A DNA stretch of 64,000 nt from Candidatus Moraniibacteriota bacterium (GCA_003507445.1 DNVR01000019.1:142132-206131); one strand, 5' to 3'; shown: positions 35,187-49,719, numbered from the stretch's first letter. Numbers and translations: made by a program. Notes: generated by a model not told the origin, from the letters alone.

Positions 35187-35954
35187 ATGGCACTGGGAAG
35201 ATTTATGGCGGAAGCATTGGGCGAAGGTGCATTTCTGGGTATACTGAAGCATGCATGGGGATGGGCCGTTAGAATCATTGGCTTTTTGGGTGTTGGTGAA
35301 ATTGCTGGAAAAGCAGTTGGAGAAGAAATAAAAAAACGTCTTATTGACCCAAAAGGTTGGGAAGATGAAAATTATTTTGCTCTTGATTTATCTGAAGCCA
35401 ATGCCACACCCGACCAGAAGAATATGATCAGTAAAGCAATGAAGATGGTTGAGGATGAAGATAAATTAAATGAAACAATGTATGCGAGAAATTTTCGTAT
35501 CCTTGTGACGTTTAACGACATCACTCATCCCAGTAAGCCTGCTGTCCCAGCTGTACCTGCAGTGCTTGCCGTATCTGCTAGGCCAGCTGTTGCAGCTACT
35601 GCTACCACGGCTGCTATTCCTGCAAAACCCGCAATACCAGCTAAGCCAGCAATTCCTGCTGTGCCTGCAACTGTTCGTCCTGGAATTACAATTTTGGAAG
35701 ACCTTGCAAAATGCAATAATGTACTAGAAGTAATTTCTAGAATTATGGCAGTTGGGGTTATGCAGGACACTACTTCAAACTTTGAAAAGTTTCTGAAGTA
35801 TTTCAAAGAAGTGACATTTCCTTCACTAGAAAAAAGTTATGAATCTGTTACAAGGTCAATAACTTGTTCTATTAATGAAGCCGCTACTTCTCTTGAAGAC
35901 GAGGCTGAAAAAAGAAGGAATCGTCCAACATGGAAAAAATGGTTGTTAAATTAA
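35187..35954 (+). CDS. Hypothetical protein with Pro/Ala-rich repeat linker (KPAIPAKPAIPAVPA)
   Basis: Excellent SD (aaggggagg). Amphipathic N-terminus, GC-rich PA-repeat, C-terminal domain of unknown function. Confidence 0.5.
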   Translation: MALGRFMAEALGEGAFLGILKHAWGWAVRIIGFLGVGEIAGKAVGEEIKKRLIDPKGWEDENYFALDLSEANATPDQKNMISKAMKMVEDEDKLNETMYARNFRILVTFNDITHPSKPAVPAVPAVLAVSARPAVAATATTAAIPAKPAIPAKPAIPAVPATVRPGITILEDLAKCNNVLEVISRIMAVGVMQDTTSNFEKFLKYFKEVTFPSLEKSYESVTRSITCSINEAATSLEDEAEKRRNRPTWKKWLLN

Positions 35955-35983
35955 AAACACTAATTAAAAGGGAGGATACGGAT

Positions 35984-36763
35984 ATGCTTGAAGCAATTGG
36001 GAATTTTTTTGGGAGACTTAGGGATTTGAGTCGTGAGGAGCTTGCGGATCTGCGGAAATGTTTAATTGTTGTATGGTCATTGACCATTTTTGGTGTCGTG
36101 GCAATATTGGCAATAAAACCCGCGATTGAAATTTCAGTTTGGATCACGGTTTTTCCCTGGATGTATAGCGCATATCGACTGTATTCAGTCAGGCGGATTA
36201 TTAATGTGCACCTGACAGGGGAAGCACTTGAGTTGGCAAGGGTGCCGGTTGCAGATCCGTCTGAACCGCGCCAGGAAACAGGAGTATTTGATAACGATTT
36301 CATTCGAGGTTATCTGTCAATAATTTCCAATATCTTTCTGGTGCAAACCGCACTTTTCCTGGTACTGCCACTGTATGTCAATTATACATTTGGCGGAATG
36401 ACTGCGGCGATTGTAATCTTGATGTTGATGGTTGTTATTGCTATAGATAACTTCACGTCATTTAAGAGATTGTCGCGGTTCACGGTTAAGGTGGCAGTTG
36501 TTGCATATACTGTGGGGTTAGTATTTGTTTTGTTTCCGCAAACTGGCTTTTATATGAATGAGCTGGTTGGGGACAGAATAAAAATAATCCCAGCTTCGAC
36601 TGCGAAACTCGTCAATGACATTGATGATTTTCAGAAGCAGAAAAAAATTGAGGCTAATGATAAATTCTTGAAAGATGTCGCTGAATACCAGAAACGACAT
36701 CCCAAAGAAGAAATGCCTCAGGCTATAAGAGATGAAATTAAAAAAATAAAAAAGGAAGGGTAG
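35984..36763 (+). CDS. Hypothetical polytopic membrane protein
   Basis: SD aagggagga 7 nt before ATG 35984. 4-5 TM helices then a charged cytoplasmic tail. Confidence 0.5.
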   Translation: MLEAIGNFFGRLRDLSREELADLRKCLIVVWSLTIFGVVAILAIKPAIEISVWITVFPWMYSAYRLYSVRRIINVHLTGEALELARVPVADPSEPRQETGVFDNDFIRGYLSIISNIFLVQTALFLVLPLYVNYTFGGMTAAIVILMLMVVIAIDNFTSFKRLSRFTVKVAVVAYTVGLVFVLFPQTGFYMNELVGDRIKIIPASTAKLVNDIDDFQKQKKIEANDKFLKDVAEYQKRHPKEEMPQAIRDEIKKIKKEG

Positions 36764-36790
36764 GTCACGCCAAAGAGTTGGCGTGAGGAG

Positions 36791-36830
36791 GGGCGCAATA
36801 ATGGAATCATCCATTGTTGCGCCTTTTAAT
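36791..36830 (+). terminator. Strong hairpin (ggcgcaataatgga-atca-tccattgttgcgcc) + T-run, preceded by second hairpin 36764-36788
   Basis: 14-bp stem with one G.U, then ttttaatttt. Lies between the membrane protein and the 771-aa gene. Confidence 0.55.
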
Positions 36831-36906
36831 TTTCCTAAAATTGCTATGGGATAAAAATGAATTTTATGATATAATTTTAGAGTAAATAAAATACTTTTAG
36901 TCTTCT

Positions 36907-39222
36907 ATGGATTTTTTTAAATTTCCTAAAATTTTACGTGAAAAATCTGAACTAGACACGTCTGGTCAAAAGGCTTTTTTGAAATCCGCTGAACCAATGC
37001 GACCACTTTTTGTGAAAAATTTAGACGAAGCTATTGAAGATCAAATCACAGAAAAAGATGTGCCAGTAGATTTAAAAGCCGAAGCTTCTCTTTTGGGTGC
37101 AAAAGATCTTGGAGCTGCAGCTGCATCAGCAATGACCAAAAGACAGGAAAGGATTCGTAAAGATATGGTCGAAAAATATTTTGAAGAAATATTTCACACA
37201 CAAAAAAAAGAATTTCAAGATTTAAAAGATGAAGATAAAAAGGTTATAAATGATGAGAAATCGGATTTTTTGGAAGAAATTAAAAGTTCTTTTAATGCTG
37301 TTACTAATGAGGATGTTGAAAATGGGCTAAGGGATCGATTCTTAAATCAATTGCATGAAATGAAAATTTCAAAGGAGGCAAGGGATTATGTTAGAAAGGT
37401 GTGCGGTGGAATTGAGGTTGATGAGTTCTTGGGAAGAAAAGAGAATAAAGGCCTGGAGGAAATATTTAAAGAAGCTAAAGGTCTCATATTGAAAACAAAT
37501 GAAACAAAAAAGCAATTTCGTGCAAATAACCCAGGTATTAAGCTTGTGCGTGATTTTACTTTTGATTTAGTGGAAAAAATAGATTACTTTATACAGAAAA
37601 TAGATGAAGATATTGATTTTTTTACTGTCGAGGAGGAGGCTTTGTGTAAAAAAGTATTAGGAGCCTCCAAAGGAATCATTAAGGGTAATGGCAAGAAAAC
37701 ATCGATCGTAATGGACGGATTCACGTACAATGCAGATAGCGCCAATGTGGTAATAAATGAGGTAAAGCCAGCAGCAGTTGAAACTGACGCTGAAAAAGAA
37801 GAAAGAATGAAATTTTCCAGAGCTGGTGCTCAAATAACATTGCAACGAGTTGATAAGTGGGAGGATCTTGACGTTGTTGATCCTGCTGAAAAAGGTGAAC
37901 ATAAGGGCGATAAAAATTTTATAGAAAAAACCAAAAAACTTTGGAAAGAATTTGCGGTCCATGGACTTTATAAAGATGGTAAATTGCAGAAGTTTACTGA
38001 TTTAGATGGTAAAGGTTGCTTGGAATTGTTAAAGTTAGCCAAGATAAATATAAAAGATTTAAAATATATTGATCCTGGTACTTTTGAAGAAGGAAGAATT
38101 AATTTAGATACTGGCGGAAAAGATGGTGTGGTGGCTGAGGATTTTGATAAAGAGAATAAAAAAACAGCTTTTATTGATCATCATGGTGAAGAATCATTGG
38201 CTGATTCTTCTGCAACCGCTAAAACGTATCGAATGTTGGTTGACTTGGGGTTATTAGAAAAGAATCCAAAGCTGGATGAAATGGTAAAATTTGTAAATCA
38301 AGTAGATAATGCACAGTATCCTAAGATAGAAACATATTTTGAAAATTCTCATAAGACAATTATTGGCTTGCAAAATTATATTCATGGATCAAAGTTGGTA
38401 AATTTTTTCATGAAAGATAATAATCCTGACCCAACCAGAGAATTGTCTGAAGGTGAATTAAAGAAATATGGCTTTATATATCCTGGTGTTGGTGATAAAA
38501 AGGGAACTATTGTAAACAGGAGTGAAAATCAGAGAAATGTTAAAGAAAAATCAAAAGAAAGTCTTGAAAGAATGGAAAAAGAAGGATTTATAATTACTTC
38601 TGATCGTTATGGAAAAATTGCAGTAAGTATTGAAAATGGAATTGAAAAGAAAAATATCCCAGGTGATATCTTGGCTGTTAAGGCGTTTGGTTGTGACTCT
38701 CTTGTTATTTGGAACCCAAGAGAAAATAAATTTAAAATTTCTACCAATAACGAAATAACCGAAGAATATTCTCAAGGTGTTAAAGTGCGTGGCATAATGT
38801 GGGTAAAAAATAATAGCGATAGTTCAGAACTAACTGTTACGCTTGGGGAGATTTTGAATAAAATGACAGATGGAAAATTGGTGGCTGAAGGAAAATTGAA
38901 AGAATATTTGGAGCAAGAAGTGGCTTTGCCAGTCTCAAATGCGGATGCATTATCAGTTGAAGCGCCAAAAGAAAAAACTCCAGAAGATTTGTTCAAAGAT
39001 CTGATTGTGGAACTCTCTGTTTTTAATGTAGAAAGATATCAATTGTTGTATAATGAAATGATGGATGTGGCTGGGAAAAAGGGAGTAGTTGGAGATGAAA
39101 AAAAGAAGCTAGTTTTGAGTGTGTTGCCCAATGTTGTTGAACGTGATATTGCAAGGCACACAAAAAAAAGAGGCGAGGAGTTAGAAAAGATTTCTGAGTA
39201 TATTTTGAGTCAAATAAAATAA
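36907..39222 (+). CDS. Hypothetical large protein with embedded DHH-phosphoesterase-like motifs
   Basis: FTDLDGKGCLELL (motif I DxDGxxS/C), INLDTGG (motif II) and AFIDHHGEE (motif III DHH) at canonical spacing. Rest unassigned. Confidence 0.5.
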   Translation: MDFFKFPKILREKSELDTSGQKAFLKSAEPMRPLFVKNLDEAIEDQITEKDVPVDLKAEASLLGAKDLGAAAASAMTKRQERIRKDMVEKYFEEIFHTQKKEFQDLKDEDKKVINDEKSDFLEEIKSSFNAVTNEDVENGLRDRFLNQLHEMKISKEARDYVRKVCGGIEVDEFLGRKENKGLEEIFKEAKGLILKTNETKKQFRANNPGIKLVRDFTFDLVEKIDYFIQKIDEDIDFFTVEEEALCKKVLGASKGIIKGNGKKTSIVMDGFTYNADSANVVINEVKPAAVETDAEKEERMKFSRAGAQITLQRVDKWEDLDVVDPAEKGEHKGDKNFIEKTKKLWKEFAVHGLYKDGKLQKFTDLDGKGCLELLKLAKINIKDLKYIDPGTFEEGRINLDTGGKDGVVAEDFDKENKKTAFIDHHGEESLADSSATAKTYRMLVDLGLLEKNPKLDEMVKFVNQVDNAQYPKIETYFENSHKTIIGLQNYIHGSKLVNFFMKDNNPDPTRELSEGELKKYGFIYPGVGDKKGTIVNRSENQRNVKEKSKESLERMEKEGFIITSDRYGKIAVSIENGIEKKNIPGDILAVKAFGCDSLVIWNPRENKFKISTNNEITEEYSQGVKVRGIMWVKNNSDSSELTVTLGEILNKMTDGKLVAEGKLKEYLEQEVALPVSNADALSVEAPKEKTPEDLFKDLIVELSVFNVERYQLLYNEMMDVAGKKGVVGDEKKKLVLSVLPNVVERDIARHTKKRGEELEKISEYILSQIK

Positions 39223-39236
39223 AGTTACAAAACAAA

Positions 39237-41429
39237 ATGGCAGCAGGAACATTGGACGCAACTATATTTAATGATTTGCTTAACAAGCACACAGCACAAA
39301 TAAGTGCTGAGGTTGAAGTTGAAAAAGAAGACAAGAGAATTGCTAAATGGACACAGGAACACAAGGATAAATTGGCAATTGAAACTGAAGTGCTTGGCGA
39401 GCAGCGTGAAAAAGAGAATGAGATGTTCGAAACTGCTGCCAAGAGTCCTAAAAAAGGAATTGAAAAAAAAGATTCTGTTTTTGAGGGTGAGAGAAATTTC
39501 AAAAAATCCACAGATATGGCTGAAGCTGTTGATCCTCAAGAAAAAGCTCTCAGGGAAGCAAGAAAAATTTATGTCGAAACTGAATTCAAAGAACGAAATG
39601 CTCTTAGGGAAGTTAGGGGTTATTTTAGTCGGGCGCTTGGAAAGGAGGATAAGACAGAAACACCAAATATCGCTGCAGCTCGTATGGCTTATGAAAAATT
39701 ACGTAAAGAAAAGATGAATGGCGAGATTGCCAAACTCGAAAGTGGTACGCTCAAAGGAGATGCTTTGAATACTGAGATCAAGAAATTACTCACTTATTAT
39801 AATACTGGAGCTGCACTGGAATTATATAATGATAGAATTGCAGTAAAAACTGCGCAAAAAAAAGAAACCGAGGGAAAAACAAAGCTTAAAAATACTTGGG
39901 ACAAGGTAACGTTAAAGATGGATCAGGTTGCGGAATTTTATAATAAAAAAGTTCATTGGTCTATAAAAATTGGACTTGCTGCAACCTCTTGGTATCTTGG
40001 TGCTGGTGCATTTAAATCTGGAAAAAACATTTGGGGTGCTTTTATGATGGCAACAGCGGGAGGTGCGGCGTTGGATGGTGCGGCACAATTTACTGATAGT
40101 ATTCTTGATGGTAGGGCGGACAAAAAAAATCTTAAAGAAATTTCCAAAGAAGGTGGCGAGGTTGATTTTGAAAAATTGAGAGGAATCTTGAATCAAAAAA
40201 ATGAAGATATTAATAGAAAAGTTAATAAACATGTGATGCGGGCATATTTTAATAAGACGGTTGCAGTTTGTTTGGCAACAGTAATTGGAGTGCAGGCAGT
40301 TGAGGGCATGGCGCATGCTTTTGAAAAAATGACTGCAGCACCTCCCGTGGTTAGCACCGCTCCATCTGTAGATAATTGGCCAACTCCTCCAAGCACTGGT
40401 ATTCCTGTGGATTTAAAACCAGAATCACCTGAATATATAAAATGGGTGGCTGAACATGGTGGGAAGCCTCCAGTTTCAGCTCAAGATGCTGCTGCGCAAG
40501 CAAAAAAAGCTGCTGAAACTGTTGTTGGTGCTTCAAATAAAGCGGTTGAATCCTTAACAATAGAAAAAGGTTCAAGTATTGAAAAAACATTGATCGATCA
40601 TCTCAAGACTCATGGAATAAAAAATCCAGGAGCTGCAGCACATCGCATGTGGCTTGATTATATGCATGACAATAAAGCTGAGATAATTAAAAAAGTTGGA
40701 GACAATGAATATCACAAGATGCTAAAAGATGGAATGGTTAATGTTAAACCTGGAACGCATATTTTTATAAATGAAAATAATCCGTTGGAGATGAAATTGA
40801 GTAATATTGACGGGAAAATCTCACACCTGAATGGGCATCATTCTGTTGGCAGTGGCGGCGTTGAAAATGGGCAAGGTGTGGGCGCTAGTATTAAACCAAC
40901 TGATATTCCAAAGCCGTCAGCAGCTGCGGTGGTAGGAAATGCTGATGTCTTAGGGTACACTGGGGAAACTCAGCAAAATATTTCAACAGCAAAAGAAATG
41001 TTTAAAAGCGCTAATGCTGAATATATTCAAGCAGCCAATGATGCAACAGATCATCCCGCTGGAGGAGGTGGACCATCGGCATCTCAATATGAAGATATGG
41101 GTCGCGCTGATGAGGCGCGCAAATCGGCAGCTTTGACAGTTGAAAATTTAGCCAATGCAAAAGAGAATTGCTTTAAGGATATAAAAGCAGCGACGAATGG
41201 TATATATAAAGCTACTGGATACAAGTGGGATGATATTAAAAACTTGGATTATAGTTCTGCTTATGCTGATGATAAATTGCGTCCAATTATGAAAGAAATG
41301 GCAAAAGAATATAAAAAAGAATTTGGCAATACTAATAATTTTCCTAATAGTAATACCACTTTTGGGAAATGGCTTTACCGTGTAAAAGAGGTTACTATAA
41401 AAAAACGTTTAGGTATAAATATTGAATAA
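39237..41429 (+). CDS. Hypothetical large protein with central hydrophobic segments
   Basis: 730 aa. Charged N-terminal third, 2-3 predicted TM/hydrophobic helices (IGLAATSWYLGAGAF, GAFMMATAGGAALDGAA, VAVCLATVIGVQAV), Gly/Ala-rich C-terminal region. Confidence 0.45.
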   Translation: MAAGTLDATIFNDLLNKHTAQISAEVEVEKEDKRIAKWTQEHKDKLAIETEVLGEQREKENEMFETAAKSPKKGIEKKDSVFEGERNFKKSTDMAEAVDPQEKALREARKIYVETEFKERNALREVRGYFSRALGKEDKTETPNIAAARMAYEKLRKEKMNGEIAKLESGTLKGDALNTEIKKLLTYYNTGAALELYNDRIAVKTAQKKETEGKTKLKNTWDKVTLKMDQVAEFYNKKVHWSIKIGLAATSWYLGAGAFKSGKNIWGAFMMATAGGAALDGAAQFTDSILDGRADKKNLKEISKEGGEVDFEKLRGILNQKNEDINRKVNKHVMRAYFNKTVAVCLATVIGVQAVEGMAHAFEKMTAAPPVVSTAPSVDNWPTPPSTGIPVDLKPESPEYIKWVAEHGGKPPVSAQDAAAQAKKAAETVVGASNKAVESLTIEKGSSIEKTLIDHLKTHGIKNPGAAAHRMWLDYMHDNKAEIIKKVGDNEYHKMLKDGMVNVKPGTHIFINENNPLEMKLSNIDGKISHLNGHHSVGSGGVENGQGVGASIKPTDIPKPSAAAVVGNADVLGYTGETQQNISTAKEMFKSANAEYIQAANDATDHPAGGGGPSASQYEDMGRADEARKSAALTVENLANAKENCFKDIKAATNGIYKATGYKWDDIKNLDYSSAYADDKLRPIMKEMAKEYKKEFGNTNNFPNSNTTFGKWLYRVKEVTIKKRLGINIE

Positions 41430-41866: not shown

Positions 41867-42304
41867 ATGAAAAGTAACTTAGAGCCGATTGAGGAAAGTG
41901 ATTTGGACTTGGAGGGTAAAATTAAAAATGGAAGTGTGGATTTTTCTCGTGAGGATGCCGTGCCTGTTTCTGCTATTGAACGTGAAGCGATAAAAGAAGT
42001 TAGTGCAGCTGAAAAGGATGCTGCTTATGGCAAAATTCTTTCCAAAGTTCAAACAGTGCAATCTGATGATGAATTGGATCAAACAGTCATTGCGTCTGAT
42101 GCGAAGACTGGTTACGAAAAAATGGATGCTGAGTCGCAGGTTCAGCACTTGGTTGATATTGCAGGGCAAAAAGGTGTTGTGCATGCTGTGAAAGTGGCTC
42201 AACATATGCAAGACAATTATATTCTCGACACTTTTCACGACCGTATGCTCGGCGAAGAACTGCACAATGCATTGGTGGAGAAGGGAATGATAAAGGAAAT
42301 CTAG
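41867..42304 (+). CDS. Hypothetical acidic protein
   Basis: 145-aa ORF, no domain recognised. Confidence 0.4.
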   Translation: MKSNLEPIEESDLDLEGKIKNGSVDFSREDAVPVSAIEREAIKEVSAAEKDAAYGKILSKVQTVQSDDELDQTVIASDAKTGYEKMDAESQVQHLVDIAGQKGVVHAVKVAQHMQDNYILDTFHDRMLGEELHNALVEKGMIKEI

Positions 42305-42475: not shown

Positions 42476-44962
42476 ATGAATACTCTCGACCTCAACACCA
42501 TCCTCATCCCTTTGCTTTGGGTTTTTGCCACACTGACTCTTTTTAGTGGTGCTTTTTTGGTTGTGCGAAGTTTTTTGAATTATCGTGCTCAAATCAATCG
42601 TTCGATGAATATGGACTTGGAAGTTGTGCGAGTGACAAAAATTTTCAAGGAAAAAGGCGAGCGAAGTGAAAATGGCGAAGCTTGGAAAGAAGAAATTGGT
42701 GCGATGGAACAATTGCTCACGACACTTTCTAATATTAAAGAAAAAAAATCACTCTGGGCTCATTTTTTGTATAGCGAGCCATATATGGCACTTGAAATTG
42801 CCAATCCTTGTGGAAATGAGGAAATTTCTTTTTATTTGGCAGTGCCAAAGAAATTTCGTGACAGCATTGAGAAGCAAGTTCATTCATATTTCCCACATGC
42901 TTCTATTGAAAAAATTCCAGATTATACGATTTTTTCACCAGGGAGTTTTACTGCTGCTGCAACACTTGGACTTAAACGTTCATATGCTTTGCCAGTTCTT
43001 ACATATGAAAATATTGATGTTGACCCGCTCAATGAAATTTCAAATGCGCTTAGTAAGCTGCAAACAGAAGGGGAAGGTGCGGCGATTCAGATTGTTTTGC
43101 GTCCTGCGGGAAAAAATTGGCGAAAATTGGGAAGAGGAATTGCACACAAGATGCAACAAGGAAAACAACTTAAGGATGCACATTCAAATTCGATCGCAAT
43201 GGAACTTGGAAAAGGTATGGTGCAAGTGATTCAAAATAAGCCAAAGGAAGAAATTCTGCACAAGGATTCAGTGCAGCTTACTCCGGAAGAACAGGAACTT
43301 GTAAAAAAAATTGAAGCAAAATCTGGCAAGGCTGGATTCAAAGCTAACATTCGTTTGCTTGCATCTGCAATGACTCAACAGAAGGCGGATGAAATTTTGG
43401 CGCATATGGAAAATGCTTTTGCGCAATTTGAAAATCACGACGTCAACCATTTTGTGGTGCAAAAAAGAATTAAATCCAAGAAAATATCTTTTGATTATAT
43501 CTTCAGAAATTTTGATGAAGATCATTCTATCATTTTGTCTACTGAGGAAATTGCCAGTATTTTTCATTTTCCAATTTCTACCACTGAAACACCAAAAATT
43601 AAATGGTTGAAAGCTGGAGCTGCACCACCACCACTTAATATTCCAAAAGAAGGATTGGTTCTTGGATATAATGATTATCGTGGAGTAAAAACCGACATCA
43701 GACTTAGTGATGGAGACAGACGAAGGCATTTGTATACTATCGGTCAAACTGGTGTTGGTAAGTCAAATTTCTTGCAGGAAATGGCCAAACAAGATGCGCG
43801 TGACGGCAAAGGATTTTGCTTTATTGATCCACACGGAGATGCGATTGAAGATATTTTAACTGCCATTCCGAAGGAACGCGCGGAAGATGTGATTGTGTTT
43901 GATCCATCTGATATGGAAAGACCCTTTGGACTTAATATGCTGGAATATGACCCGAGTCATCCCGAGCAAAAAACTTTTGTGATTAATGAAATGATTGGTA
44001 TTTTTGATCAGTTGTATGATTTGAAAGCTACAGGTGGTCCGATGTTTGAACAATATGTGCGAAATGCGATGCTCCTTATTATGGAAGATCCTGAATCAGG
44101 CTCAACGCTGATGGAAATTTCCAAAGTTTTGGCTGATGAAGATTTCCGCAAAATGAAATTGTCCAAGTGTAATAATCCCGTAGTTTCAGATTTTTGGATC
44201 AAGGAAGCTGAGAAAGCTGGTGGGGAAGCAGCACTTGCTAATATGGTTCCGTATATCACTTCCAAGCTTACCACCTTTGTTTCTAATGATATGATGCGTC
44301 CAATCATCGCACAGCAAAAAAGTACAATCAATTTTCGTGAAGTGATGGATTCTGGCAAAATTTTGTTGGTAAAACTTTCCAAAGGAAAGATTGGAGAAAT
44401 CAATGCACATCTTTTGGGAATGGTTATTGTGGGAAAAATTTTAATGAACGCGCTGGCGCGCGGTGATATGCCTGAAGATCAGCGTCGCGATTTTTATCTT
44501 TATTTGGATGAATTTCAAAATGTCACAACTGAATCGATTTCTCAAATTCTTTCTGAAGCGCGAAAATATCGTTTGTGTTTGATTATTGCACATCAATTTA
44601 TTGGGCAACTTAAAGAAGAAATTTCCAAGGCAGTTTTTGGTAACGTTGGTTCGATGGTGGCTCTGCGAGTTGGACCAGAAGATGCAGAGTTTTTGGAAAA
44701 ACAATTCGAACCGATTTTTACTGCCAATGATTTGGTTAATGTGGATAATTATAGTGGCTTTACGCGAATGCTTGTTAATGGGGAACTTTCCAAGCCATTT
44801 AATATTAAATTTTATCCACCAACCAGGGGCAATCAAGAAGCTGCCAATTATCTCAAAGAGCTGTCACGCCTCAAATATGGACGCGACGCTGCTATTGTGA
44901 ACCGTGAAATTATGCAACGCGCCCAATTTGCACGTAGCGCAATGAAAGAGTCAGCTTTCTAA
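42476..44962 (+). CDS. Membrane-anchored TrwB/TraD/VirD4-like (type IV coupling protein family) P-loop ATPase
   Basis: N-terminal TM (LIPLLWVFATLTLFSGAFLVV). Walker A YTIGQTGVGKSNF followed by FIDPHGD (compare TrwB VIVDPNGD). Distant Walker B LYLDEFQNV. Confidence 0.65.
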   Translation: MNTLDLNTILIPLLWVFATLTLFSGAFLVVRSFLNYRAQINRSMNMDLEVVRVTKIFKEKGERSENGEAWKEEIGAMEQLLTTLSNIKEKKSLWAHFLYSEPYMALEIANPCGNEEISFYLAVPKKFRDSIEKQVHSYFPHASIEKIPDYTIFSPGSFTAAATLGLKRSYALPVLTYENIDVDPLNEISNALSKLQTEGEGAAIQIVLRPAGKNWRKLGRGIAHKMQQGKQLKDAHSNSIAMELGKGMVQVIQNKPKEEILHKDSVQLTPEEQELVKKIEAKSGKAGFKANIRLLASAMTQQKADEILAHMENAFAQFENHDVNHFVVQKRIKSKKISFDYIFRNFDEDHSIILSTEEIASIFHFPISTTETPKIKWLKAGAAPPPLNIPKEGLVLGYNDYRGVKTDIRLSDGDRRRHLYTIGQTGVGKSNFLQEMAKQDARDGKGFCFIDPHGDAIEDILTAIPKERAEDVIVFDPSDMERPFGLNMLEYDPSHPEQKTFVINEMIGIFDQLYDLKATGGPMFEQYVRNAMLLIMEDPESGSTLMEISKVLADEDFRKMKLSKCNNPVVSDFWIKEAEKAGGEAALANMVPYITSKLTTFVSNDMMRPIIAQQKSTINFREVMDSGKILLVKLSKGKIGEINAHLLGMVIVGKILMNALARGDMPEDQRRDFYLYLDEFQNVTTESISQILSEARKYRLCLIIAHQFIGQLKEEISKAVFGNVGSMVALRVGPEDAEFLEKQFEPIFTANDLVNVDNYSGFTRMLVNGELSKPFNIKFYPPTRGNQEAANYLKELSRLKYGRDAAIVNREIMQRAQFARSAMKESAF

Positions 44963-45014
44963 AAGGTTTTAGGTGTTAGGTACTAGGTTCTAGGTTTTAG
45001 AAAAATTCATACAG

Positions 45015-45044
45015 CAAAAAACGGCTATCGTTAGCCGTTTTTTG
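45015..45044 (+). terminator. Rho-independent terminator aaaaaacggctatcgttagccgtttttt
   Basis: Stem cggcta/tagccg with A/T flanks after the ATPase gene. Confidence 0.6.
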
Positions 45045-45053
45045 TGTTGTTAT

Positions 45054-45125
45054 TGACTTTTTATCAATTTGGGTGTATAATATAAAGATAGTGTCCACAC
45101 GTTTTAAAAACGTGTGGATTTTTTA
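45054..45125 (+). promoter_or_regulatory. Consensus-like promoter TTGACT-N16-TATAAT immediately followed by hairpin+T-run (tccacacgtttt-aaaaa-cgtgtgga-tttttt)
   Basis: Seen directly. Would give a transcript of about 40 nt; alternatively an antisense/attenuated unit facing the 3' end of the 874-aa gene. Confidence 0.4.
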
Positions 45126-47747
45126 TTGAAGCGTAACTGAAATCAGTCCAGCTAAAGTTGCAATGTATGCGAGTTTGTTTTGTTCGTCGACTGTCAATGA
45201 AAGCGCATCTTTGAAGGCTTCATTGTGGTATTGCACAAGGATGTTCCCGTCTTTGCTATATGAAACTAGGCGCGAGTTTTGTGTGTCTAGTACATAGAGG
45301 TTTTGCAAGTCCGGAGTTGTGTATATTTTATCAAAGTTAATAGGTGTGGTGGATGCTTCAAGTGTGAAATCGACAACTTTTCCTTTGAAGAATTTTAAAA
45401 CTTTATTATCGGAAATCGCATAAATGTTGTCGTCGATTGTTATTTCTGAAACATTTGCAAGAGATGTTGAATCTTTGAGCCAACTTGTTTTTTCGCCAAA
45501 TCCACCGTCTGCGCGTGGGAAGCGATAAATTTGATTGTTTTTTTGATCAAGCACATATAAATATGTTAGATATGTTCCAATTGGACTTCCTGATGAAATG
45601 TTGGATAAATCGATGTTGTTGCTTGCAAACTTTTCTGAAATTGGACTGAAGGAAAGAATTTTGTTGCTGTCCGTGAAGATTAAAACAAGGGACAAGTCTT
45701 TCATATATGTTGCGGAAATAGCAGCTCCGGAGTCAGCAGGAATCGGAAATTCTTTCGGCTCTTTGTTTTGCAAAACAATAACGCTGTTTTTTGTAACCAC
45801 TGTTGGATTGTTGTTTGCGATCAAAGCGGTAACGATATTTGAGTTTGATAAAATTGCTTGAATTTGTGTGTTGAAATCAATATTTTTGTCATTTGCCAAT
45901 GCTCCTATTTGGGTCAAAGGCGCATCTTGAAGTTCAACAATTGTTGGAGCTTTTGGTCTGTTCAAGAAACGCACAATGAAAAGAGGTGCGATAAAAATAA
46001 GGGCTAGTGCAAAAAGAATAAACAGTTTTTGTTTTCCTGAAAAATGTGAAAATAATTTTCCAATTTTTGAAAAATGCGGAGTTATGATGGTTGTTAATTG
46101 ACTTGGCTTTGCAATACCAGACCTTCTTTTTGCTATTGCTCTAATTTTGCTTAGTCCAATTTTTGTGTGCGCAATTAATTTTTTTGATAGTGGTAGTATT
46201 TTTTTAATATTTTCCAAAGCCAACATCTTAAGTTTCGTTGTTTTGGATGTTGTTTCAACATTTTCAAATTGTATTTCTGGCTGGATGAGGATTTCTTCTT
46301 CTAATGTCTCGGTTTCCTTTGCGGTTTTGTTTTTCAGATCAATAACAGCGTTTCCTTGCTGCTCTAGTCTTGCTAAACGAAGTTTTTCTTTGAAGCTTAA
46401 TTGTGAATCTGCAGTTGGTTGGCTCTCTGGTTCTTCTGCGCCGATATCTGCAACTTTAATTTTTGCTGCTGTTTTTTTCTTGGCTATTTCAGCTTTTGCG
46501 AGAATATTTTCTTGTGCAAGATTTTCTTGTTGACGCTTGTTTTCTTCCTCAAGATGAAGTTTGGCAAGTTGCTGCTCCTCGGCGATTTGTTGTTCGCGCT
46601 GAATTTCTTGCAAAACCCTTTCTTCTTCAAGACGTTTTGCCTCTTCGGCTGCAAGAAGCTGTTGTTTTTCTTTTTCAATTCTGCGAAGCTCTCTTCTTTT
46701 TGCTAATTGTTTTTTGTATAAAGAAAAACGTTTTCGAATTTCATTTTTGGTTAAATATGATCCTTGGGAGATTTTTTCTTTGATCATATCCCAATACAAA
46801 TTCATTTGGGGATTGGTGTTCTCATTGTTTTCATTGACCTCGCCCTGAACGTATATGTGCCCGGTTTTTTCATCGGTATATTCTTGTTCAGCATCTGCCG
46901 GCAGTATTGTCATTTCTAATTCATTTTCTTGTGCCAAGGTTTCAGTGTCTTTGGCGCTGGCAAAAGATTGTTGGCTGAAAGCATTGACTGCCTTGGGAGA
47001 TTTTTTGCGAGGCAGTGCCTTGGTTGCTGCAGCAGGAACCACTTCAGTCATTTCGACAACCACCGAAGCAATCATTTCTATTTGGTTTGAAAGTGCGGTT
47101 TTCAAAAATTGCACAAATTTGTCTCCTTCAAATCGTTGGAAATTCTTTTTGATTTCAGCAATTGGCAAAATATGAAAAATATCTGCCGAGGTTATCAGCA
47201 TTCGATCATTTTTTTCAAGGCGTCCGCTGGAAACATTAACAAAAGTCTTGAGTGGGTGTGGCTCAAGGGAATCTGAGGCGAGATCCTCACTTATCTCGGA
47301 AAGACTTTGGTTTCTATATAAAAAGATTTTAGCATCGCCTGAAACACTGAAATGCGCATTGTTTTTTTCTAACACACAAATTGCGGCGTTTATTTTGCCT
47401 AGCCATTCAACGTTCCCGTGTTTGGCTAATTCAGAAAGTGCAATGTTCACTTTGTGTAGGGCACTGTCCAAGCTTTCCGTGACTGGTCTTTTTGGATTTA
47501 TATAATATTCCTTTTTTAAAACAGAGGTTAAAAAGTTCACAACATATGCAGATTCATCGGAGAATTCTTTGACTTCAAAAAAGCCAACAAGCGAGCCGAG
47601 CGGTTGCTGGTAGATGTTTTCTGGTGCGTATTCAAATAATTCCACGTATGGTTTTAGGGAGGAATTGTTGACAACCAAAATTGGGGAAATTGTTTTTTCC
47701 AGTTCTTTTATCACATCTTTGTTTTTATCGGAGTTTCTTGGGGACAT
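45123..47747 (-). CDS. Hypothetical single-pass membrane protein (cytoplasmic domain + Glu/Gln coiled coil + TM + extracytoplasmic beta-repeat domain)
   Basis: TM LFILFALALIFIAPLFIV near aa 560; EEERVLQEIQREQQIAEEQQ coiled coil; C-terminal repeats resembling beta-propeller blades. Confidence 0.5.
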   Translation of the reverse strand: MSPRNSDKNKDVIKELEKTISPILVVNNSSLKPYVELFEYAPENIYQQPLGSLVGFFEVKEFSDESAYVVNFLTSVLKKEYYINPKRPVTESLDSALHKVNIALSELAKHGNVEWLGKINAAICVLEKNNAHFSVSGDAKIFLYRNQSLSEISEDLASDSLEPHPLKTFVNVSSGRLEKNDRMLITSADIFHILPIAEIKKNFQRFEGDKFVQFLKTALSNQIEMIASVVVEMTEVVPAAATKALPRKKSPKAVNAFSQQSFASAKDTETLAQENELEMTILPADAEQEYTDEKTGHIYVQGEVNENNENTNPQMNLYWDMIKEKISQGSYLTKNEIRKRFSLYKKQLAKRRELRRIEKEKQQLLAAEEAKRLEEERVLQEIQREQQIAEEQQLAKLHLEEENKRQQENLAQENILAKAEIAKKKTAAKIKVADIGAEEPESQPTADSQLSFKEKLRLARLEQQGNAVIDLKNKTAKETETLEEEILIQPEIQFENVETTSKTTKLKMLALENIKKILPLSKKLIAHTKIGLSKIRAIAKRRSGIAKPSQLTTIITPHFSKIGKLFSHFSGKQKLFILFALALIFIAPLFIVRFLNRPKAPTIVELQDAPLTQIGALANDKNIDFNTQIQAILSNSNIVTALIANNNPTVVTKNSVIVLQNKEPKEFPIPADSGAAISATYMKDLSLVLIFTDSNKILSFSPISEKFASNNIDLSNISSGSPIGTYLTYLYVLDQKNNQIYRFPRADGGFGEKTSWLKDSTSLANVSEITIDDNIYAISDNKVLKFFKGKVVDFTLEASTTPINFDKIYTTPDLQNLYVLDTQNSRLVSYSKDGNILVQYHNEAFKDALSLTVDEQNKLAYIATLAGLISVTLQ

Positions 47748-47938: not shown

Positions 47939-48544
47939 ATGTCGGAAATCCTTGAAGTGCTATTCGGTTCAAAAGCAAAAACCAGAATCCTGAGATTTTT
48001 TTTGCTTAACTCGGAAAAAGAATACAGCGTTGCTGATATTGCAAAGAAAAATATGCTGGCAACAGCTTCTGTGCGAAAAGAGATAGGCGAGCTTAAGAAA
48101 ATAAAATTTTTGGTTGAAAAAACAAAAAAAGGATCAAAATATTATACACTCGATCAAGATTTTTGTTTTTATTCTGAACTCAAAAGTTTGTTTGCAAAAT
48201 CAACTGCTTCGCCTGAATCCAAAAGTTTGTCACGATTGAAAAACATTGGGGATGTGAAACTTGCATTGGTAAGTGGCATTTTTCTTAATTATCCAAAAAG
48301 TAAGGTGGATATGGTTTTGGTTGCAAACAATGTCAGTCGCGGAAAATTGAAAAGTGTTATGAGCAGCTTGGAGGCTGAAATTGGGAAAGAGGTGAGTTTT
48401 GTGTTGATGAATAGTGATGAATTTAAATATCGCTTGGATATGCTTGATCGTTTCTTGTTGGATTTCATCGAAGGATCTCATTTGGAATTAATCGACAAAA
48501 TCCCTGGGCTCAAAAGATTTATTGCTGGTCGTAAAAAATACTAA
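47939..48544 (+). CDS. Winged-helix DNA-binding protein (ArsR/MarR-like N-terminus) with uncharacterised C-terminal domain
   Basis: TRILRFFLLNSEKEYSVADIAKKNMLATASVRKEIGELKKIKFL is an HTH pattern. Confidence 0.45.
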   Translation: MSEILEVLFGSKAKTRILRFFLLNSEKEYSVADIAKKNMLATASVRKEIGELKKIKFLVEKTKKGSKYYTLDQDFCFYSELKSLFAKSTASPESKSLSRLKNIGDVKLALVSGIFLNYPKSKVDMVLVANNVSRGKLKSVMSSLEAEIGKEVSFVLMNSDEFKYRLDMLDRFLLDFIEGSHLELIDKIPGLKRFIAGRKKY

Positions 48545-48594
48545 ATTCTACGAATTACAAATAATTACAAATTTACAAATATACAAAAACAAAT

Positions 48595-49719
48595 ATGTCA
48601 TCAATTTTTGTCGCGATTATTATAATAGGAATCTTGGCCGCTCTTTTGTGGCTTGTTTTTGATTTAAAAATGAAGGTTGTGGCGAGTAGTGATAACAAAG
48701 AAGAGAGAGAAAAGATGACGGCAATTTTGGAGCGCCTTCGGAATTTGAGCGAACAAAATCATCAAATGCGCACCGAAATAGACACAAAATTAACCGAAGC
48801 GCGGCGTTCTTCGAGTGAGCATATGCGCGACACAATTGAGACAGTCAAGGGGATTACGGGTCAATCAGCCAAGCTTATTAGCAATGTAACTGAAAAGCTG
48901 ACTAAGCTTGATGAAACAAATAGGCAAGTGGTTAATTTTTCGGCGCAACTTCAAAATTTGCAGGATATTTTGAAAAACCCAAAACAACGTGGAGTGCTGG
49001 GGGAATATTTTCTAGAAGAAACACTCAAAAACGTGCTGGGACCAAAGTCATATCAAATGCAATATAAATTGGGCAAGAGTGAAAAAACCGATCAAGATTT
49101 GATCGTTGATGCGGTTGTTTTTGTGAAAGACAAAATTGTTCCAATTGATTCAAAGTTTTCACTTGAGAATTATGAAAGAATCTTGAATTGCACTGATAGT
49201 GCAGAGCGTGAAAAATTTGAAAAATTGTTCAAACAGGATTTGAAAAATCGTATTGATGAAACTGCCAAATATATTCGTCCTGAAATGGGAACAATGGATT
49301 TTGCTTTTATGTTTATTCCTTCCGAAGCAATTTATTATGATTTGCTTGTAAACAAGGTTGGTGCAGCTCAAATTAACACGCGCGACTTGATTGAATATGC
49401 TTTTCAGGAAAAGAAAGTCATCATCGTTTCCCCGACATCATTTCTGGCATATTTGCAAACAGTGCTTCAAGGTCTCCGAGCTTTTCAAATTGAGGAAAAT
49501 GCCAAAGAGATTCGCGCCAATGTGGAAAAACTTGGAAAACATATTATTGCATATGAAGACTATTTGAAAAAATTGGGAAATAATCTCGGAACCACAGTAA
49601 ACAGTTTTAACACTGCATATAAAGAGCTTGGAAAAATAGATAAGGATGTCGCGAAAATAACTGAAGGAGAAAAAACAATTGAGCCTCTGGCTTTAGAAAA
49701 ACCACATGAACTTTTTTAA
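48595..49719 (+). CDS. rmuC: DNA recombination protein RmuC
   Basis: N-terminal TM, coiled coil, then QRGVLGEYFLEETLKNVL matching the RmuC xRGxWGExxLE motif. Confidence 0.7.
   Translation: MSSIFVAIIIIGILAALLWLVFDLKMKVVASSDNKEEREKMTAILERLRNLSEQNHQMRTEIDTKLTEARRSSSEHMRDTIETVKGITGQSAKLISNVTEKLTKLDETNRQVVNFSAQLQNLQDILKNPKQRGVLGEYFLEETLKNVLGPKSYQMQYKLGKSEKTDQDLIVDAVVFVKDKIVPIDSKFSLENYERILNCTDSAEREKFEKLFKQDLKNRIDETAKYIRPEMGTMDFAFMFIPSEAIYYDLLVNKVGAAQINTRDLIEYAFQEKKVIIVSPTSFLAYLQTVLQGLRAFQIEENAKEIRANVEKLGKHIIAYEDYLKKLGNNLGTTVNSFNTAYKELGKIDKDVAKITEGEKTIEPLALEKPHELF

Follow-up and report, generated by a model that had tools for sequence, protein, structure and literature searches.

A probable divergent DHH-family phosphoesterase encoded in a conserved gene cluster with a VirD4-like membrane ATPase in Candidatus Moraniibacteriota

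Introduction

DHH-family phosphoesterases such as NrnA and RecJ are built from two lobes, and their canonical motifs stand at the ends of secondary-structure elements of the first lobe, motifs I to III each closing a beta-strand and motif IV closing a helix. In RecJ, NrnA, GdpP and family II pyrophosphatase, the residues of these motifs hold a two-metal (Mn2+/Mg2+) centre, and motif II of RecJ reads D-T/N-G, much like motif II of the family described below. GdpP, a phosphodiesterase for cyclic di-AMP, places its DHH/DHHA1 module at the membrane, where it is linked to envelope physiology, and carries within one chain N-terminal transmembrane (TM) helices, a PAS domain and a degenerate GGDEF domain. 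Here we consider a 771-residue protein encoded in a stretch of 64,000 nucleotides (nt) from a Candidatus Moraniibacteriota bacterium (GCA_003507445.1, DNVR01000019.1:142132-206131; hereafter the window), in which an earlier sequence-only reading had noticed DHH motifs I to III. This protein founds a large unnamed family that the standard profile libraries miss and whose named relatives are Patescibacteria, and we think it fairly probable, as the best overall explanation of the observations, that it is a divergent DHH enzyme coupled to a membrane ATPase module. Compared with the sequence-only reading, what is new here is a fourth motif, a DHHA1-like lobe with a new signature, the profile-missed family itself and the conservation of the operon.

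On the side of the ATPase, 5,713 VirD4-like homologues of type IV coupling proteins (T4CPs) have been counted in 2,918 Patescibacteria genomes by a 2025 survey, only 148 of them near virB4, and the authors of that survey consider that the orphan T4CP genes have possibly been taken over for other functions (PMC12102498). Our literature search found no paper on the DHH-like family or on DUF5663 or DUF8128, and none linking a DHH enzyme to orphan VirD4-like ATPases.

Results

The open reading frame (ORF) at 36907-39222 on the plus strand opens with ATG and translates into 771 amino acids (aa), a product identical to hypothetical protein DEA43_01310 of Candidatus Moranbacteria. Translation returned the three motif strings quoted in the sequence-only reading, in the order given there: FTDLDGKGCLELL (aa 363-375), which contains motif I, DLDGK (D365 and D367; 37999-38013); INLDTGG (aa 398-404; 38098-38118), which is motif II with D401; and AFIDHHGEE (aa 421-429), within which IDHH forms motif III (D424, H425 and H426; 38173-38184). 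A fourth motif, FVNQVDN (D467 and N468; 38290-38310), had been overlooked by that reading, and its D467 lies 43 residues past D424. The distances from D367 to D401 and from D401 to D424 are 34 and 23 residues, while those of Bacillus subtilis NrnA, whose reference sequence was confirmed against PDB entries 5j21 and 5ipp, are 54, 22 and 54 for I-II, II-III and III-IV. The spacing that had been called canonical is therefore so between motifs II and III (23 against 22) and is not so between I and II, which are 20 residues closer than in NrnA; motifs III and IV are 11 closer. When the protein was shuffled 200,000 times with its composition preserved, the I-III pattern arose 11 times (5.5e-5) and the I-IV pattern 3 times (1.5e-5). 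The window has 116 ORFs that encode 100 aa or more, and this one alone carries the pattern.

A word-based search recovered only seven relatives. What these have in common with our protein is a core of about 375 aa, and the regions on either side of it are variable and unrelated. This conserved core, which defines the family, spans aa 296-672 (37792-38922). When its profile was searched exhaustively against 1.84 billion representative proteins (representatives of 50% identity clusters), 586 proteins matched at E<1e-3 and 338 at E<1e-30, with the core at variable positions in proteins of about 260 to 2300 aa, most of them 500 to 2300 aa long. The N-terminal extension of our protein (aa 1-295; 36907-37791) is poorly conserved and yielded neither a TM segment nor a family match; across the family this extension varies in length, with a median of 199 aa, and the short forms have none. 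At the other end, the 99-aa tail (aa 673-771; 38923-39222) is variable and not conserved. The suggestion that a divergent DHH domain is embedded in a much larger protein is supported by the predicted fold, by the near-invariance of motifs I to IV and by their secondary-structure context. Neither Pfam nor NCBIfam has a model for the family; its members are without Pfam annotation and are all called 'hypothetical protein' at their source. Where a source genome is named, it belongs to Moranbacteria, Staskawiczbacteria, Portnoybacteria, 'Saccharibacteria' or the 'Patescibacteria group'. Two loci, one labelled 'Bdellovibrionales' with a gene order of the type seen in the candidate phyla radiation (CPR; L008) and one labelled 'Gammaproteobacteria' that carries the family gene (L014), are probably mislabelled through mis-binning.

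Residue conservation was assessed in 137 diverged full-length cores. The motif residues are among the best-conserved positions: D365 is kept in 95% (otherwise N), D367 in 100%, D401 in 98%, D424 in 98%, H425 in 99%, H426 in 96%, D467 in 97% and N468 in 96%, and H352 of the first strand, FAVHG, in 87% of relatives. An alignment of 25 short forms has as its sole invariant columns D365, D367, D401, D424, H425, H426, D467, G569 and R628. Of the two words used in the sequence-only reading, 'divergent or degenerate', we retain the first and drop the second, because the catalytic residues are fully retained. One may ask whether the protein is instead a non-catalytic scaffold with a DHH fold, comparable to Cdc45, that organises an ATPase complex; Cdc45 chains are indeed found among the weaker fold matches, the extensions are large and variable, and motifs II and III are degenerate in at least one relative (P0018). 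Set against these points, seven residues of metal-ligand type are 95-100% conserved in the 137 members, as one would expect if the DHH enzyme is catalytically active and would not expect of a scaffold, and on this ground we rejected an inactive scaffold, which we regard as very improbable. Judging from the conserved residues, the protein is probably an active phosphoesterase. As for P0018 itself (827 aa), GKINIGVGGK and AAYINS stand in place of motifs II and III while the remaining core is conserved; either an assembly error or the inactivation of a paralogue could account for this.

The sequence-only reading had suggested building a structure model, and two AlphaFold2 models of the core were examined, one from 7 sequences (mean predicted local distance difference test score, pLDDT, 82; predicted template-modelling score, pTM, 0.83) and one from 36 (pLDDT 91.7, pTM 0.89). 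In Foldseek searches of the PDB, the top 14 matches of the first model and the top 16 of the second are exclusively DHH/DHHA1 proteins, the best for both being 6mtz (E 1.6e-6 and 1.9e-5, probability 1.00). These matches include RecJ of Deinococcus radiodurans (5f54-5f56) and Thermus thermophilus (2zxr, 2zxo), an archaeal pAp phosphatase (8a8k), NrnA/Pde2 of Staphylococcus aureus (8iu7), NrnA of B. subtilis (5j21), a RecJ-like protein of D. radiodurans (8ioo), PF0399 (5yh1) and SH1221 (3dev); Cdc45 and the C-terminal DHHA1 domain of AlaRS occupy the next ranks. Two-lobe DHH/DHHA1 enzymes align over their full length, in 307-468 columns, and the isolated AlaRS domain reaches only E 0.1-1. According to DSSP, motifs I to III stand in both models at the C-terminal ends of beta-strands and motif IV at that of a helix; motif I follows the core strand 64-66 and precedes helix 71-82, and motif IV closes the core helix 159-172. 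With limits read from the DSSP elements and not from a domain parse, a DHH-type catalytic lobe of about aa 348-520 (37948-38466), starting with the strand FAVHG, is joined by a long linker helix (core 243-263, aa 538-558) to a second alpha/beta lobe resembling DHHA1, about aa 562-653 (38590-38865). From these models we consider that the protein very probably has the DHH/DHHA1 fold and descends from that superfamily.

The second lobe has a signature of its own, YSQGVKVRGIMWVKN (38767-38811), which follows the pattern Q623-G624-x3-R628-x2-M631-W-x-K and stands where canonical DHHA1 domains have RxRxR and GGGH, the motifs that bind phosphate and base. Conservation in the 137 cores is 99% for G569, 98% for G624, 99% for R628 and 95% for M631, and the strand that a low-confidence hhalign alignment pairs with the RxRxR strand of NrnA has the consensus S-F-F-I-S. 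R628 would be the residue that contacts the substrate phosphate.

The gene appears to head an operon. Upstream, a terminator-like hairpin with an 18-pair stem (36788-36827, plus strand) closes the preceding unit, and it is followed by a promoter-like site, TTGCTA-18-TATGAT (36841-36870, plus strand), identified by consensus match only. Downstream, all on the plus strand, lie the genes for a 730-aa protein (39237-41429), which starts 14 nt past the DHH-like stop codon, a 104-aa protein with homologues that carry the annotation DUF5663 (PF18908; 41453-41767), a conserved 145-aa protein (41867-42304) and an 828-aa membrane-anchored ATPase of FtsK/HerA/VirD4 type (42476-44962); a second terminator-like hairpin, of 14 pairs (45014-45045, plus strand), would mark the end of the unit. 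Between the two hairpins we found no other on the plus strand, and we infer from these sequence signals that the five co-directional genes form a terminator-bracketed operon headed by the DHH-like gene.

The ATPase scores above the Pfam cut-offs for TrwB_AAD_bind (32.8 bits; cut-off 20.5), TraG-D_C (28.7; 22) and DUF87 (24.5; 23.2). Its aa 4-34 form a TM segment, and it has the Walker A sequence GQTGVGKS at 423 and the Walker B sequence YLYLDE at 674; its homologues additionally carry DUF8128. The 730-aa protein, which matched no family, begins with a charged, coiled-coil-like region; hydrophobic segments follow at about aa 240-360, then a linker rich in Pro and, towards the C-terminus, a conserved domain (aa 439-580). 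This last domain is 53% identical to aa 1337-1470 of P0012, a family member of 1647 aa, from which it follows that the DHH-like enzyme and the membrane protein are fused in other lineages; P0003 and P0092 probably contain the same fusion. The 145-aa protein weakly matches TraY, a DNA-binding protein of the relaxosome (NCBIfam PRK13740), with a score well under the cut-off (E 6.6e-4), and could be a ribbon-helix-helix DNA binder encoded next to a T4CP-like ATPase.

The same gene order recurs at six further loci (L001, L002, L005, L007, L012 and L016) and on a JGI contig, with core identities of 41-56%, and at another (L019) the enzyme forms part of a 2315-aa protein (P0092) followed by a small protein and then by a DUF8128/TrwB-like ATPase. 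The operon with a TrwB-like ATPase that the sequence-only reading had supposed is thus borne out by the hairpin- and promoter-like signals together with conserved synteny. None of the 14 window ORFs of at least 450 aa is VirB4-like or relaxase-like.

The window as a whole is core chromosome of uniform GC content, with genes for DnaE, ThrRS, GatB, a MiaB-like protein, MurD, MurA and a release factor; MurD, MurA and ThrRS are encoded 13-28 kb from the DHH-like gene. An origin from a phage or mobile element was considered and rejected, given that no relatives were found among the IMG/VR viral contigs, that GC content is uniform and that housekeeping genes lie on both sides.

Several features adjoin the operon. 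Between a PMT_2 glycosyltransferase gene and the DHH-like gene (35187-36763, plus strand) lie two ORFs, one of 255 aa with Pro/Ala-rich PAVPA/PAIPAK repeats and one of 277 aa with about four TM segments, which occur in this genome only and are absent from four syntenic loci (L001, L002, L012 and L016); the strong terminator-like hairpin at 36788-36827 comes after them. Convergent to the ATPase gene, an 874-aa protein (45123-47747, minus strand), kept in those long-form loci that have sufficient flank, gives two weak matches, to PP2C (Stp1) at aa 69-155 (E 0.014) and to an NHL-type domain near the C-terminus (E 0.007); its middle is rich in Glu and Lys, and aa 569-598 form a TM segment. Since PP2C also occurs in one long member of the DHH-like family (E 7e-11), a link to phosphatases may be recurrent. 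Further on (47939-49719, plus strand), a 201-aa protein with winged-helix-type matches below cut-off is followed by an RmuC-like recombination protein; this pair is syntenic in L001/L006 and L016, and the contigs of L002 and L005 stop at the first gene.

Discussion

If the analogy with the characterised enzymes holds, D365, D367, D401, D424, H425, H426 and D467 would form a two-metal centre that hydrolyses a phosphoester bond, with the substrate held in the cleft against the second lobe. Its most likely role would then be that of an exonuclease or phosphodiesterase acting on a nucleic acid or oligonucleotide handled by the ATPase at the membrane, the whole being a T4CP-like machine that works independently of a VirB4 secretion system. 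We attach different degrees of belief to the parts of this scheme: that the substrate is a nucleic acid or oligonucleotide we favour by a slight balance only, and functional coupling to the ATPase module we put forward tentatively, as somewhat less probable than its absence.

A number of our results weigh against this picture, and the first group concerns membership in the superfamily. The protein did not match Pfam DHH (PF01368) even at E<=10 and did not match DHHA1 (PF02272), NCBIfam and PADLOC scans gave no significant match, and phmmer and profile hmmsearch runs against the PDB sequences returned chance matches only. The sequence-only reading had proposed the search with these two Pfam profiles and had counted the lack of a significant match, together with a predicted fold other than DHH, as speaking against its claim; the former is what we found. 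Scans of 7, 24 and 25 relatives likewise gave no significant DHH or DHHA1 match; when the 25 relatives were scanned singly, the Pfam family matched by most members was PF01368, yet in only 2 of the 25, below threshold, with a best E of 0.074. An hhalign comparison of the 137-sequence family alignment with an NrnA profile built from 120 database homologues was weak (P = 0.003, probability 10%), and the TM-scores of the Foldseek matches are low (0.28-0.43) with high root-mean-square deviations, perhaps owing to a differing relative orientation of the two lobes.

In this profile comparison, the best local alignment places INxDTG...xDHH on IVCDTAN...IDHH with motifs II and III in register, pairing D401 with D80 of NrnA and D424-H425-H426 with its DHH at 102-104, and at a relaxed threshold motif I is also aligned, as is H352 with the strand-1 His (HRH) of NrnA; at motif IV the register is off by two residues with low confidence. 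Its significance is weak because the NrnA profile is of low diversity (an effective number of sequences of 2.4). Comparison of the family with the single NrnA sequence was uninformative (probability 2%), and global mode gave a nonsense alignment. At the level of sequence the hhalign result agrees with the DHH assignment and is not significant alone. The lack of a significant profile match in the Pfam, NCBIfam and PDB sequence searches is also what one would expect had the three motifs arisen by chance in a Lys/Asp-rich protein unrelated to DHH enzymes. This, however, would leave unexplained the low shuffle frequencies, the coincidence of the motifs with the best-conserved columns of the family, and the fact that both models led Foldseek to DHH/DHHA1 proteins only; we rejected chance on these three grounds and consider it extremely improbable.

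A second point of weight against our picture is the second lobe. GGGH, GGH and RxRxR occur in 0 of the 137 cores, which extends to the family the absence of GGGH that the sequence-only reading had remarked, and for this reason what is known of the substrates of NrnA, RecJ and GdpP cannot be carried over. The specificity would then differ from that of NrnA and RecJ. The same absence bears on the possibility of a housekeeping role as nanoRNase or pAp phosphatase, in which the protein, as the functional analogue of NrnA or Orn in Patescibacteria, would rid the cytoplasm of di- and oligonucleotides and pAp, its adjacency to the ATPase gene being inherited gene order without functional meaning. NrnA, Pde2 and pAp phosphatase rank with the best fold matches, the family is large and located in core-chromosome regions, the viral contigs yielded no relatives, and NrnA-sized short forms sit among genes for aminoacyl-tRNA synthetases, mur enzymes and DnaK. 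Such an enzyme would, however, be expected to possess the nucleotide-binding RxRxR and GGGH that are missing in all 137 members, and the large extensions of the long forms and their fusion to a membrane protein are unexpected for a soluble nanoRNase. We judge this alternative unlikely, while giving it more weight than the other alternatives considered here.

The third group of adverse points concerns the ATPase. Standalone short members of the family, 340-380 aa long, adjoin mur, aminoacyl-tRNA synthetase and DnaK genes: MurI/MurD or MurL, FtsW and MurG genes at L009 and L017, and aminoacyl-tRNA synthetase genes at L013 and L015. At L020 (8990-10527), the genes for a 356-aa short form and for a 156-aa RecO_N-domain protein share 4 nt, which hints at a RecJ-like recombination role for the short forms. 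Near the short-form loci examined there is no such ATPase; the core activity therefore does not require it, and the ATPase link is a property of the long forms and not of the whole family, being confined to one lineage or form. Gene order is moreover strongly conserved in the small CPR genomes, so that synteny alone is weak functional evidence.

The neighbourhood also prompts consideration of a membrane-associated phosphodiesterase for cyclic di-AMP (c-di-AMP) or pApA, similar to GdpP or Pde2 and tied to envelope homeostasis. Structures of Pde2/NrnA type are among the fold matches, tethering through a fused or adjacent TM protein recalls the membrane anchoring of GdpP, and envelope genes are found nearby, namely those for PMT_2 glycosyltransferases and a POTRA/FtsQ-like protein here and for MurD, MurI/MurL, FtsW and MurG around the short forms. 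The protein has, on the other hand, neither a PAS/GGDEF module nor a TM segment of its own, and it lacks GGGH; no diadenylate cyclase turned up, though no search was aimed at one, and the envelope neighbourhood may merely reflect conserved CPR gene order. Taken together, these considerations make this alternative improbable in our opinion.

Returning to the divergent DHH enzyme coupled to a membrane ATPase, its most far-reaching form would be that the enzyme and its membrane partner, to which it is sometimes fused, make up, with the DUF5663 protein, the 145-aa protein and the DUF8128/VirD4-like ATPase, an unrecognised, Patescibacteria-specific membrane machine that translocates nucleic acid while degrading or processing it, independently of a VirB4 type IV secretion system. 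We regard this as doubtful. If true, the machine could possibly scavenge nucleotides from host or environmental DNA or RNA, which would explain why bacteria unable to synthesise nucleotides keep thousands of 'orphan' T4CP genes. Since these bacteria must obtain nucleotides from their hosts, a nuclease or phosphodiesterase linked to the membrane is a testable candidate for a role in nucleotide acquisition or signalling. The operon and the fusions provide the first concrete set of partners for orphan VirD4-like ATPases, whose role was left open in the survey (PMC12102498). For a large family of 'hypothetical' proteins there is now a fold and, as the probable chemistry, the metal-dependent hydrolysis of phosphoesters, and a dedicated profile hidden Markov model (HMM) could enter the annotation libraries. 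Because its DHH lobe is paired with a second lobe without GGGH or RxRxR, the family may have a specificity not yet sampled among DHH enzymes. The superfamily itself is well known, and the interest of the system would be higher only if coupling to the orphan T4CP-like ATPase proves functional.

Lastly, we compare the protein with known systems. Enzymes of NrnA/Pde2 type (5j21, 8iu7, 3dev and 8a8k) have the same two-lobe architecture in a core of about 320-375 aa, with motifs I to IV in the same order and at the same secondary-structure positions. The family differs from them in showing no significant HMM similarity, in its shorter I-II and III-IV spacings and in having QG-x3-R-x2-MW-x-K instead of RxRxR and GGGH, and our protein has in addition an extra N-terminal helical segment (aa 296-347). 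RecJ (5f54-5f56 and 2zxr), a 5'-3' exonuclease for single-stranded DNA in which an OB-fold and other C-terminal domains make a ring around the strand, shares the DHH/DHHA1 core and is among the best fold matches of the second model; in contrast to RecJ, our protein has no OB or RecJ_OB domain in Pfam scans, ends in its unconserved 99-aa tail, lacks GGGH and shows no match at sequence level. Unlike GdpP, it is without TM segments by prediction and without PAS or GGDEF domains in Pfam, and the membrane part resides in a downstream gene or in a C-terminal fusion. The best structural match, 6mtz, is an uncharacterised protein of Helicobacter pylori G27 with only 14-16% identity to ours, and our literature search found no paper mentioning it. 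The survey of T4CPs reported no linked DHH-like enzyme (PMC12102498); the ATPase of the operon is like the orphan T4CPs in its N-terminal TM segment, in its TrwB/TraG-type domain and in the absence of virB4 among window ORFs of at least 450 aa. For the pairing of a DHH nuclease with a HerA-type ATPase, the interaction of RecJ with HerA described in one study (PMC4663267) offers a precedent.

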